The notes: generated by a model not told the origin, from the sequence alone. 20,000 nt of DNA from Catajapyx aquilonaris (GCA_000934665.2 JYFJ02001672.1:53270-73269); one strand, 5' to 3'. Numbered from the stretch's first letter, positions 9,301 to 12,153 are shown. Translations and numbers: made by a program.

Positions 9301-12153
9301 TCATGCAAGTGCTTAAAATATTTCCGATATTGAAGTTCACATTGGCTCTCATCGAGTTGGAAATGCCTCCACTCTTATTGAACTAAGAGCACATATGTAT
9401 TCCGTAGAGAGAGAGAGCAGTGAATGTGACTATGTGAAAATTCTTTGATTTGAAAAGCATAACAACTTGAAAGCTGAACTAGAGGCAGGTACAGTACATT
9501 GCATTCCGAGTGTTACAGAAGCTTAATATGATGCAGCGACATTACTTTGTGATTGAGAAGAATTGTCAGAAAACATCAAAAGCCAGTTTGATAGAAGCAC
9601 TGATTGCTCTACATTTTGAAACACTTTGTTTTCATCATAATCCGATGATATGGAGTTTTATTTTACAAGGGGATGGGAGAGTGCAAAAAGAATGAAAGAG
9701 GCTAGCATGCTTTGGTCTTTTGAAAGGCAGCCATTTAATGGTTCAAATGGGGGGAACTGGGGGGGCGAAGGATCTCCATACAATGTACATATACATTTTG
9801 AAATTGCAAGCCTACTCATAAAAGAAAAGAAGCTGGTGCTGCCCCTCTTGCAAGGGATCAAAACAACAGGGTTATCCCAACAGTTGCACAGCTCAGTGGT
9901 GGCAATGAGCTATTGATTCCTGCTATTACCATCATCTGTTTGATACACAATGCCAAAGCCGAAAGCCTCGGAAAACCAGTTGCCAATAAATCAAGAAAAA
10001 GGGAGGGAGGGAGAGAAAGCCACAATGCAAAGACTCTGACTTGGTTTGGTCTTTAAAAGCGCTTGATGATGATGATCAATAGCAATAATCCCGATGCACT
10101 ACTTACTTAGCTCTTTTTTTTCACAAGTGACTCTACCATCGGGGCCTGGGTGAGAGTAAGTTGAAAGAGAAGGCAAAATATATTTGTCACAACTTCCCAT
10201 GTACTCTTCACCATTTTCACTCTTGTTGTACTTATTACAACTGTTCACTTTGAAGGAAGAATCTGTCCCACCATCAATGGTTGGAGACGGGGGATAGAGA
10301 CAGGGTGAAGAGAGAGAAAAAAAAATAACGGTATTGTAGGAAGAACAAGTTCCCATCTTGTACCGTCACAATAACAACTATAACAGTTACATTAAGCACA
10401 CATACCTTCTTGCACATCTATCCCTTCCTGCTTGAGCAGCTCTCGTAACCGCTGGATCTCCTCTTTCAGTTCTCGGATGAGTTTGGCATTGGCATCCTCA
10501 TTAACCACGGCCTTGCATACAATCTGTTTAGCTCTGTCAGCATACCTAAAAATGACAAAAGGTAAGTCCATTTCTGTTATAACAATTAATGTCAACATCC
10601 AGACCCAACAGTACTACAAGTACCTTAGTGTTGAGAGAGTTTCATCATAGTTAATATCGGCAGGGCTTATGGCGGCAACCATGGCAGTCTTTGAATTACC
10701 TCCCAAGTTTTCTCGCAGCAGCCACGTTAACACTGAGTCTCTGTAGGGTATAAAGTCTGCTTTCTTCTTTTTCTTTGAGGCCTAAAAGAGAGACGCCATT
10801 CACAGTATTTTGCATATAACACTTTTACTAAAGCATAATACAGAGATAGTGTTTCAAGTCTCAAGAAATGACGACAGCATATACTTACAGCCTATTGATC
10901 CAGAGAGCAAGCAAATGATAAATTGTCATTAATTAAGGCTGTGAGGCACATCTCAACTTGCAATACATAATGAGTAATGCACTGCCCATGTACACATAAC
11001 TGAAGAGGGGTGAGAGTTTTGGATTGTTTACCACAGCATCCCATCGGAATCAACAATAACGGTCACATTCTCAGGTCACGATTTTCGCTACTCTTGAAAC
11101 TGCTTGCTGGAGTAAACAATCCAATACCTTCCCTCTTTTCTTCCCCTGGGGCAATGAACTGAGGCAATGCAACATCCTGTGTATGAAAAAGTTTGACTTA
11201 CCACTTCTGCTAGAGCAGATATGACTTTTCCAAGAGTTGTTAAGCTCTTGTTGATGTTAGCACCTTCTTTTAATCTGGTTCCTTTGGCCCCTGTGGAGTC
11301 AGCCCTCTCTGAACCTGCCAAATCCACCAAGGAAATCTTGCTGACTTTTTCTGTAGTCAACTGAGTAAGTCTGTCAAAACGCTGCTGCGTAAAGACAATA
11401 GTGAACACAGCATGAGATCGACTAGATGTTTCATTCATATTGGTTGCTGCCACAGTTCTGCCAAATGAAAACAAATTGTAAGTTTCATCCTCATCACATG
11501 GTAAGGCACTGTCAAATAGCCTCACCTGGCTTTATTTCCTTCGTCCATTAGGTCATGTATGTCTTGATATGACATTACAGCCAATTTGGACAAATCCTCT
11601 ACATATGGTCCTAGAAGTGGATGCTCTCTGACTCTCAGATTCCCTTTGTTTTTAGGGTTCAGTAAATCACGAACACGTTCGCAATATATCTCCATGTAAC
11701 TGACCTAAAGTTGAATTTGCGTAAATAAAATATATGACAACTCATCCCAATTGTAGCACTTACTTCTACAGAGTAGGTGATTTCATCTGATGATGTGTCT
11801 TTGATACGCTTGAACAGATCTTCGCAGATTTGTGGAATAATTCCCTCCTGCCCTTCCTCTTGCTTCCCCATCATCGTATATGATTTGCCAGCACCAGTCT
11901 GGCCATAAGCGAATATACACACATTGTATCCCTCGAAGGCATGCTCCAGCATCTCCTCACCAATATCTTTGTACACTATTGTTTGCGATGCAAACATTTC
12001 GTCATCCTGCTGCTCAAGCACACAGTGTTAGTCCCCCATCCTGAATTTAAGAGAGTGAACACACTATACTTACATCAATTGAACAGTAAGAATAATCATA
12101 GTTGAAACTTTTAATTCCTTCCTTTGATCCCGGCATCTTTGGGTTCGCAATTG
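1..12153 (-). CDS. unc-104: Kinesin-3 motor unc-104/KIF1A-like gene (spliced; span of visible coding exons, partial at both ends)
   Basis: Spliced translation shows motor motifs [42 protein letters not shown] and K-loop [18 protein letters not shown] ([11 protein letters not shown]...[11 protein letters not shown]); [69 protein letters not shown] domain ([12 protein letters not shown]). Every junction checked is GT-AG with matching phase. Confidence 0.97.
692..840 (-). CDS. unc-104: unc-104 exon, Ser/Thr/Met-rich linker ([11 protein letters not shown]...[22 protein letters not shown])
   Basis: tttag/gtaagt; 149 nt; phase 0 to 2 fits both neighbours. Confidence 0.88.
714..761 (-). repeat. Coding 12-bp tandem repeat x4 (SMAT/SMNT)
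   Basis: Minus strand CCAGCATGGCCA CCAGCATGGCCA CCAGTATGAACA CCAGCATGGCTT. Confidence 0.9.
953..1126 (-). CDS. unc-104: unc-104 exon ([17 protein letters not shown]...QGKAPNK)
   Basis: ttttag/gtaaag; 174 nt; phase 0 to 0. Confidence 0.92.
1626..1867 (-). CDS. unc-104: unc-104 exon ([23 protein letters not shown]...FTKSEK)
   Basis: ttgcag/gtaagc; 242 nt; phase 1 to 0. Confidence 0.96.
2101..2317. mobile_element. Degenerate Tc1/mariner-type MITE in an intron
   Basis: Ends TA-CAGAGTGTTT...ctgcca and tggcag...AAACACCCTG-TA form imperfect terminal inverted repeats with TA on each side; inner inverted pair gttggcccaata / tattgggccagc; no coding capacity. Confidence 0.7.
2604..2793 (-). CDS. unc-104: unc-104 exon ([15 protein letters not shown]...[16 protein letters not shown])
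   Basis: tttaag acceptor; gtttgt donor at 2603, with an alternative in-frame gtagcc donor giving boundary 2613. Confidence 0.9.
3038..3258 (-). CDS. unc-104: unc-104 exon, DUF3694 region (GRIRNTPE...[19 protein letters not shown]...SAYLE)
   Basis: ttcag/gtgagg; 221 nt; phase 1 to 0. Confidence 0.95.
3348..3512 (-). CDS. unc-104: unc-104 exon, DUF3694 region (APNGEYVP...[16 protein letters not shown]...RELVV)
   Basis: ttacag/gtcagt; 165 nt; phase 1 to 1. Confidence 0.95.
3665..3819 (-). CDS. unc-104: unc-104 exon ([13 protein letters not shown]...[15 protein letters not shown])
   Basis: aattag/gtgagt; 155 nt; phase 2 to 1. Confidence 0.93.
3883..4010 (-). CDS. unc-104: unc-104 exon ([34 protein letters not shown]...)
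   Basis: tcttag/gtaaga; 128 nt; phase 0 to 2. Confidence 0.94.
4071..4161 (-). CDS. unc-104: unc-104 exon ([13 protein letters not shown]...LGFYHVQN)
   Basis: ttacag/gtaagt; 91 nt; phase 2 to 0. Confidence 0.95.
4236..4413 (-). CDS. unc-104: unc-104 exon ([15 protein letters not shown]...[10 protein letters not shown]...DIFCQF)
   Basis: ttacag/gtaagt; 178 nt; phase 1 to 2. Confidence 0.94.
4481..4678 (-). CDS. unc-104: unc-104 exon ([21 protein letters not shown]...ELPNSE)
   Basis: ccgcag/gttggt; 198 nt; phase 1 to 1. Confidence 0.9.
4869..4987 (-). CDS. unc-104: unc-104 exon ([39 protein letters not shown])
   Basis: tttcag/gttagt; 119 nt; phase 2 to 1. Confidence 0.95.
5191..5340. repeat. 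~150-bp near-perfect palindrome (possible palindromic MITE) in an intron
   Basis: Arms 5205-5265 and 5266-5326 are reverse complements with 2 mismatches and no spacer (centre GTTAAC); they extend 14 bp further each side with 3 mismatches. Confidence 0.95.
5489..5626 (-). CDS. unc-104: unc-104 138-nt exon B ([15 protein letters not shown]...[17 protein letters not shown])
   Basis: ttgcag/gtaacg; phase 2 to 2; conserved KIF1 motif [10 protein letters not shown]. Confidence 0.95.
6512..6649 (-). CDS. unc-104: Alternative 138-nt exon A ([19 protein letters not shown]...[10 protein letters not shown]), paralogous to exon B
   Basis: ttgtag/gttggt; symmetric phase 2; the RLELMR start duplicates that of exon 5489-5626. 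Confidence 0.85.
7357..7535 (-). CDS. unc-104: unc-104 exon, stalk ([17 protein letters not shown]...[14 protein letters not shown])
   Basis: tacag/gtgagg; 179 nt; phase 0 to 2. Confidence 0.95.
7623..7795 (-). CDS. unc-104: unc-104 exon, stalk ([11 protein letters not shown]...[23 protein letters not shown])
   Basis: ttcag/gtcaga; 173 nt; phase 1 to 0. Confidence 0.93.
8111..8428 (-). CDS. unc-104: unc-104 exon, CC2 (ARERREK...[17 protein letters not shown]...EEDIF)
   Basis: ttgcag/gtgagt; 318 nt; phase 1 to 1. Confidence 0.95.
8571..8883 (-). CDS. unc-104: unc-104 exon, FHA domain
   Basis: [24 protein letters not shown]...[13 protein letters not shown]; ggcag/gtgaga; 313 nt. Confidence 0.95.
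8949..9082 (-). CDS. unc-104: unc-104 exon, CC1 ([14 protein letters not shown]...VGVFSPKK)
   Basis: atcag acceptor, gtgagt donor, 134 nt, phase 1 to 0. Confidence 0.95.
9154..9270 (-). CDS. unc-104: unc-104 exon, hinge/CC1 (GDDCMKVV...[15 protein letters not shown])
   Basis: tttcag acceptor, gttggt donor, 117 nt, phase 1 to 1. Confidence 0.92.
10107..10145 (-). CDS. unc-104: 39-nt cassette exon in neck hinge ([13 protein letters not shown])
   Basis: cccag acceptor, gtaagt donor, symmetric phase 1; resembles the GPDGKVVCEK segment I recall from Drosophila Unc-104. Confidence 0.85.
   Translation of the reverse strand, partial: APMVESLVKKKS
10212..10262 (-). CDS. unc-104: Candidate 51-nt cassette exon in neck hinge ([17 protein letters not shown])
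   Basis: Long pyrimidine tract then gacag acceptor; weak gtgaag donor; symmetric phase 1; leaves a 66-nt downstream intron. Confidence 0.4.
10406..10545 (-). CDS. unc-104: unc-104 exon, neck linker/neck coil ([17 protein letters not shown]...EGIDVQE)
   Basis: ttttag acceptor, gtatgt donor, 140 nt, phase 2 to 1. Confidence 0.95.
10624..10781 (-). CDS. unc-104: unc-104 exon, K-loop and motor C-terminal part ([16 protein letters not shown]...ETLSTLR)
   Basis: ttttag acceptor, gtactt donor, 158 nt, phase 0 to 2. Confidence 0.95.
10889..10891 (-). CDS. unc-104: Candidate 3-nt alternative microexon (GCT, Ala) just before the K-loop
   Basis: Minus strand reads tttgcttgctctctggatcaatag GCT gtaagtat; phase 0 matches both flanking exons. 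Confidence 0.6.
11202..11457 (-). CDS. unc-104: unc-104 exon, motor switch I/II ([15 protein letters not shown]...DLAGSE...ALAEV)
   Basis: ggcag acceptor, gtaagt donor, 256 nt, phase 2 to 0. Confidence 0.96.
11526..11704 (-). CDS. unc-104: unc-104 exon, motor ([15 protein letters not shown]...GNKAR)
   Basis: tttag acceptor, gtgagg donor, 179 nt, phase 0 to 2. Confidence 0.95.
11764..12009 (-). CDS. unc-104: unc-104 exon, motor P-loop (QDDEMFASQ...GQTGAGKS...TYSVE)
   Basis: Tandem cagcag acceptor (alternative boundary 12006), gtaagt donor, 246 nt. Confidence 0.93.
12074..12153 (-). CDS. unc-104: unc-104 exon, motor N-terminal part ([26 protein letters not shown])
   Basis: ttgcag acceptor, gtaagt donor, 80 nt, phase 1 to 0; resembles kinesin-3 NPK...FxFDYSY. 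Confidence 0.92.

Follow-up and report, generated by a model that had tools for sequence, protein, structure and literature searches.

In Drosophila melanogaster, the kinesin-3 gene unc-104 contains an exon of 3 nucleotides (nt), DmeEX0010000 (chr2R:16762097-16762099), assigned to class MIC and group eMICdep in Table S2 of Torres-Mendez 2022 (Sci Adv, PMC8797185), and two Kif1b exons of the mouse, 18 and 42 nt long, likewise appear there as eMIC-dependent. In the sections of that paper drawn on here, unc-104 is among only four genes with an eMIC exon at the same position in fly and mouse, the EndoB exon is the only one recoverable in all other insects studied, the unc-104 exon could not be traced through all three comparison insects, and convergence is favoured. 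The present work concerns a stretch of 20,000 nt from Catajapyx aquilonaris (GCA_000934665.2, JYFJ02001672.1:53270-73269; hereafter the window), whose minus strand holds most of an insect-like arthropod unc-104/KIF1A kinesin-3 gene. Judged from its bases and from the proteins of its relatives, AG/GCT/GTAAGT at 10893-10883, located where the lysine-rich K-loop (loop 12) of the motor domain begins, is very probably a genuine 3-nt alternative cassette exon and the counterpart of the insect unc-104 K-loop microexon DmeEX0010000. Orthology to the fly exon appears to be the most likely relationship between the two.

Direct reading of the minus strand gives tttgcttgctctctggatcaatAG GCT GTAAGTat at 10915..10881, within an intron of 420 nt (11201..10782, GTAAGT...TTTTAG) whose two flanks are both in phase 0. 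The acceptor AG (10893-10892) precedes the candidate cassette microexon, a single GCT (Ala) codon at 10889..10891 in phase 0, and the codon is followed by GTAAGT at 10883..10888, a consensus 5' splice site. An earlier sequence-only reading of this DNA had described an acceptor, one Ala codon and a perfect donor in the ALAEV/ASKKKKK intron, and its coordinates and sequence are exactly those found here. The microexon would divide the host intron into an upstream sub-intron of 310 nt (10892..11201), which includes the microexon 3' splice-site region, and a downstream sub-intron of 107 nt (10782..10888) that ends in ctctcttttag. Inclusion of GCT would read ...ALAEV-A-ASKKKKK..., and skipping reads ...ALAEV-ASKKKKK.... 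The intron has three AG-NNN-GT sites, and only GCT combines a usable donor with workable sub-intron lengths. GAT at 11176 was rejected as a 3-nt exon, with an upstream intron of only 25 nt and the donor gttgca, as was AAT at 11069, whose donor is gtgacc and whose upstream region is rich in purines (pyrimidine fraction 0.39).

The same junction is variable by one residue in other kinesin-3 proteins. Three protein searches, each with one exon of the window, and one cluster look-up yielded 448 proteins, in 385 of which the spliced junction was readable: 238 had the skip form, defined as LAE[IVM]-A[STM]K, 72 had an additional Ala, 35 an additional Ser and 40 some other arrangement. Inserts were counted exactly at the exon junction, and an extra Ala or Ser was thus present in 107 of the 385 homologues, although one of the 72 proteins with Ala, that of Cephus (P0238), has a longer, odd insert. 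Within species, insect unc-104 isoform pairs differ by exactly one Ala or Ser at the K-loop junction. The form with Ser occurs in Drosophila ficusphila, rhopaloa, suzukii, elegans and others, as well as in Cimex lectularius, Dendroctonus, Sitophilus, Diabrotica, Chrysoperla and Homalodisca. The form with Ala occurs among Hymenoptera (Bombus species, Leptopilina, Neodiprion, ants, Polistes and Belonocnema) and among Polyneoptera, in the termites Zootermopsis and Cryptotermes and the locust Schistocerca piceifrons. One additional residue at this place is seen across at least six insect orders, counted as Orthoptera, Blattodea, Hemiptera, Hymenoptera, Coleoptera with Neuroptera, and Diptera; Polyneoptera and Hymenoptera have Ala, and Ser is the residue of Hemiptera, Coleoptera, Neuroptera and Diptera. 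The additional residue also appears in full-length proteins taken from Logan read assemblies (contigs of 5-13 kb, which can only be transcripts), as Ala in P0123, P0125, P0151, P0297 and others, and as Ser in P0039, P0047 and P0055. Given that these assemblies are independent of NCBI gene prediction, the longer isoforms are not products of one annotation pipeline alone.

The nature of the inserted residue also bears on its origin. Shifted splice sites were considered as a source of the extra Ala or Ser and set aside: in phase 0, a tandem NAGNAG acceptor would add only Lys, Gln, Glu or a stop, and Val is all that a tandem GT donor could add, so that a Ser or Ala insert would imply a separate 3-nt exon. 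The GCT of the window encodes Ala, the residue of the polyneopteran and hymenopteran forms. A switch between Ala and Ser (GCN to UCN or the reverse) would be a one-base change, the other species being represented by protein sequences. The locus has three of the features that define the one-codon K-loop microexon of insects, namely an intron between ALAE[IVM] and A[ST]KKK, an exon of exactly 3 nt in phase 0, and a codon for Ser or Ala. The proposal that a 3-nt microexon inserts one residue at the start of the K-loop is thus backed both by the one-residue isoform pairs of insects and by the published fly exon.

Longer inserts were also seen at this junction. Psyllid proteins (P0248, P0261, P0263 and P0431-P0434) have an apparently fixed S-AVQH-ASKKKKK, and planthopper proteins (P0022 and P0023) an apparently fixed S-VST-SKKKKK; in Hemiptera, the beginning of loop 12 appears especially prone to changes in length. 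The unc-104 proteins P0013, P0269 and P0270, together with one cluster, have at most 69% overall identity to the window and a different K-loop, and this cluster shows both skip and Ser-containing forms.

The position of DmeEX0010000 within the fly protein, which Table S2 does not give, can be approached by arithmetic on isoforms. Among nine isoforms of D. ficusphila, the sole one-residue indel is a Ser at position 289, in the K-loop. The remaining indels comprise 14, 3 and 9 residues, of which 14 and 9 fit the 42-nt and 27-nt events in the tabulated data of PMC8797185. The 366 genomic bases that separate the exon after the microexon from the exon before the 42-nt exon are accounted for by about 304 coding bases and one intron of about 62 nt. 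DmeEX0010000 would accordingly sit at the K-loop junction, an inference that is tight even though the proteins come from D. ficusphila and the coordinates from D. melanogaster. The window holds a 39-nt exon at 10107-10145 (minus strand) that is preceded by ...ctctcacccag, with UGC and a UCUC tract upstream, and followed by gtaagt. Its counterpart in Drosophila isoforms is the 14-residue alternative segment GPDGKVVCEKRDAN (the 42-nt DmeEX0010003 of Table S2), and the 39-nt exon is probably another alternative microexon in this gene.

The candidate is like the fly exon in its gene family, its length of 3 nt, its phase 0, its short flanking introns and, by the arithmetic above, its ALAEV/ASKKK junction, and the eMIC regulation of the fly exon agrees with the UGC/UCUC signature upstream of GCT. 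The two differ in the residue, Drosophila isoforms inserting Ser where the window would insert Ala, and in the sub-introns, which are 88 and 63 nt long in the fly by the table coordinates and 310 and 107 nt in the window. Moreover, inclusion and regulation were measured in the fly, whereas the exon of the window is known from sequence alone. The Ala-containing isoforms of Hymenoptera, termites and Schistocerca piceifrons share both junction and residue with the window and are known as proteins only; their K-loop begins with ATKKKKK, compared with ASKKKKK in the window.

Parts of PMC8797185 describe the cis code of eMIC exons as an extended AG exclusion zone, UGC close to the 3' splice site, a tract rich in UCUC, and strong branch points (CUAAY). 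The sequence-only reading had pointed to UGC motifs followed by UC-rich sequence as the mark of such exons, and these are indeed among the cis features that the paper, as far as the sections cited here go, reports. At the candidate, UGC lies at 10913-10911 and 10909-10907 (-22 and -18 from the exon), UCUCU at 10906-10902 (-15 to -11), and the zone free of AG ahead of the microexon acceptor extends over 45 nt (10938-10894), so that AG-free zone, UGC and UCUC tract are all three present. A branch-point-like CTTAAT/TTAAT is found at 10937-10928 in the upstream sub-intron. A short frame-preserving cassette between short introns, another feature of eMIC exons, is also seen here, with 3 nt between sub-introns of 310 and 107 nt. 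As a control for the upstream signature, every AG dinucleotide on the gene strand of the window was used, 1344 in all. Two UGC in the preceding 30 nt were found at 142 of them, additional UCUC reduced the number to 15, and an AG-free zone of at least 40 nt reduced it to 2. Only the candidate, of these two, has a GTRAG donor within a few bases (3 nt) downstream.

Provided that the exon is real, it is likely to be chiefly neural and eMIC-dependent. The eMIC domain of Srrm234, which is mainly neuronal, would promote use of the weak, UGC-flanked acceptor with its two UGC, its UCUC and its 45-nt AG-free zone, and the consensus GTAAGT donor 3 nt downstream would complete recognition of the exon. Intron definition would then allow the short sub-introns on either side (310 and 107 nt) to be spliced out. 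Inclusion is predicted to add one alanine where the helix preceding loop 12 ends and meets the lysine-rich K-loop. This residue may lengthen or re-register the K-loop, which contacts tubulin tails and sets microtubule affinity and run length. According to PMC9871336, K-loop charge sets the microtubule affinity, on-rate and run length of KIF1A. A single uncharged residue would leave charge unchanged and could alter only the length or register of the loop, and any effect of the extra Ala on the motor would therefore probably be small and subtle.

Several observations weigh against this reading of the locus. The window protein has only about 70-76% identity to any retrieved insect protein, the best by score being that of Zootermopsis. 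A search for RNA sequencing runs over 10395-12030 listed none, which does not mean that no such run exists. The form with one extra residue is not seen in Bacillus rossius (0 of 10 listed isoforms), Gryllus longicercus (0 of 10), Cloeon (0 of 9 readable), Periplaneta (0 of 3) or Anabrus (one protein), and the exon is thus either overlooked or truly absent in some lineages. A metagenome scan matched 592 stretches, among them 536 relatives, and 80 loci were retained, mostly distant kinesin-3 at 50-75% identity; no insect-like locus across the junction was among these 80, so that the AG-NNN-GT island could not be aligned. The closest partial matches from that scan (L018, L027 and L033) show no AG-NNN-GTRAG after the ALAE exon in any of the three. 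Scans of viral contigs (48 pattern matches) and of contigs from prokaryote genomes (570 pattern matches) returned no relatives. Inspection of both sub-introns by eye found no exact CUAAY. The donor is a strong GTAAGT and not the weak 5' splice site that fly eMIC exons tend to have, although weak 5' splice sites are, according to the passages of PMC8797185 cited here, a fly feature absent from mammalian targets. Finally, the Dmel_eMIC sheet of PMC8797185 classes DmeEX0010000 as 'glia-shared', which denotes a percent spliced in (PSI) of at least 50 in some glial sample.

The alternative that survives best is that of a chance pseudo-exon that is never spliced in, in a lineage that lost or never had the K-loop microexon. 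The insect annotations without the longer isoform would fit it, and so would the frequency of the bare motif: AGNNNGTAAGT was found twice over the two strands of the 20-kb window together against 0.53 expected, at least two occurrences were reached in 22 of 200 shuffles, and the second match, at 4065-4075, is the end of an ordinary exon. The bare AGNNNGTAAGT motif is unremarkable at the scale of the whole window. The picture changes at the scale of the intron. AG-NNN-GTAAGT arose in 152 of 20000 dinucleotide shuffles of the 420-nt intron, and AG followed by an Ala or Ser codon and GTRAGT in only 55 of 20000. Against a pseudo-exon, moreover, the motif occupies the very intron at which relatives gain exactly one residue and codes for one of the two residues that they use, and it is accompanied by the rare combination of UGC, UCUC and AG-free zone found at 2 of 1344 AGs. 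We therefore consider the pseudo-exon unlikely, and a genuine cassette exon remains the preferred interpretation.

It is also conceivable, with a smaller chance still, that the exon is real and yet constitutive or broadly included in this species, being neither neuron-restricted nor eMIC-dependent. The perfect consensus donor, unlike the weak 5' splice sites of the fly eMIC exons, would suit broad inclusion, as would the PSI of the fly orthologue in a glial sample. However, every species gathered with the additional residue also has skip-form relatives or isoforms, inclusion of the fly exon is lost when the eMIC domain is missing (group eMICdep), and the acceptor in the window is weak and flanked by UGC. 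Regulated inclusion of a cassette exon thus seems the better account, although the strict neuron specificity proposed in the sequence-only reading is doubtful, given the glia-shared class of the fly exon. That the site is a splicing decoy or of the recursive type, leaving nothing in the mature mRNA, is very improbable: an AG closely followed by GTAAGT does resemble ratchet-type sites, but recursive sites serve very long introns and this one has 420 nt, three bases separate AG from GT, and the mRNAs of relatives do contain the extra codon.

The exons on either side of the intron establish the setting of the candidate. Upstream, a constitutive kinesin motor-domain exon of 256 nt (11202..11457, minus strand) ends with ...GCAGAAGTG (ALAEV) in phase 0; its borders are the acceptor cag/A at 11458/11457 and the donor GTG/gtaagt at 11202/11201, and it matches the Pfam Kinesin family PF00225 with E 7.6e-30 over profile positions 189-271. 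Downstream, the K-loop exon of 158 nt (10624..10781, minus strand) starts with GCCTCAAAG (ASKKKKK) in phase 0 and ends in a split Arg codon. It aligns with chains 1i5s/1i6i of KIF1A structures (residues 295-345, E 5e-27) and with Pfam Kinesin (E 1.1e-17), the profile resuming at position 271 from residue 5 of the exon. The first four residues, ASKK, fall outside the Pfam Kinesin profile and therefore within the kinesin-3-specific loop-12 insertion. With both exons matching Pfam Kinesin and the second matching KIF1A structures, the kinesin-3 identity of the gene is secure. Full-length unc-104 proteins cover the window from about 12175 down to base 3 in tblastn, and the architecture is that of a kinesin-3, with a motor domain bearing a lysine-rich loop-12 insertion, followed by FHA and PH domains. 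The unc-104 homologues that match in tblastn carry PF00225, PF00498, PF12473, PF12423, PF16183 and PF00169. The upstream 8 kb of the window (12200-20000) have a strongly negative GC skew and many long spurious open reading frames, some of them of low complexity and rich in RERE; the promoter and the first coding exons were not identified.

Alternative segments at the start of the K-loop extend beyond insects. The sequence-only reading had mentioned a small alternative exon of vertebrate KIF1B at this junction. Of the two mouse exons, the one of 18 nt, and not that of 42 nt, is presumed to be located in the K-loop and to be the positional match. This mouse exon (MmuEX0025502) is an Srrm3/4-dependent microexon, and the unc-104 and mouse exons occupy the same intron position according to PMC8797185; it adds 18 nt (6 residues) as compared with 3 nt in the window, and the authors favour convergence. 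Excerpts of PMC12626424 report that deletion of the kif1b microexon in zebrafish leads to mild social-behaviour changes, and they credit Matsushita 2009 (Traffic) with the finding that KIF1B splice variants differ in motor activity. One-codon cassette exons that can matter have likewise been described, in the parts of the two papers cited, for Drosophila TnT (PMC8042270) and cytohesin-1 (PMC6314551), which are unrelated genes whose regulation is apparently not of the eMIC type.

In sea stars, the KIF1A proteins of Acanthaster and Patiria (P0279 and P0435-P0448) contain a 7-residue insert, SQMQ[AL]SQ, in 14 of the 15 listed isoforms. The insert is alternative and lies at the same junction, and the one skip form (P0447) is identical to the ALAEV-ASKKKKK of the window; these forms are known from proteins only, and they add seven residues as compared with one in the window. 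A metagenome contig (L018:240-700) has an exon ending in ...ALAEM and then an in-frame 27-nt candidate exon (SQHAASSAK) between ...ctgctttccacaacag and gtaagt, which resembles the sea-star insert at the same junction; the contig stops before the K-loop exon.

Taken together, the sea-star insert and the mouse Kif1b exon raise the possibility of an ancient rather than a convergent cassette. In its full form, which we put forward tentatively and regard as having the odds against it, the microexon at the start of the K-loop would be one ancient bilaterian cassette that sea stars keep at 21 nt and vertebrate KIF1B at 18 nt, and that in insects would have shrunk to a single codon (Ala, later Ser). 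Because an exon of 3 nt cannot be placed by alignment, genome lift-over would have missed such a cassette. Exons of one codon are invisible to most gene predictors and aligners, and the isoform is thus probably missing from the annotation of this species. The phenomenon is already catalogued in Drosophila, and its spread across six or more insect orders extends the literature found by a small margin: searches on unc-104/KIF1 microexons and K-loop splicing showed, among the papers listed, none stating either this order-wide breadth or the possibility of an ancient cassette, which is not proof that they are unpublished, and PMC8378409 names unc-104 solely within a reference. Should the exon indeed be ancient and conserved, long-term selection would be acting on one residue at the K-loop base. 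An ancient cassette, if true, would revise the published independent origin of the unc-104 and Kif1b eMIC exons of fly and mouse, and the first residues of loop 12 would be a tuning point of the kinesin-3 motor that has been under selection for more than 500 million years.

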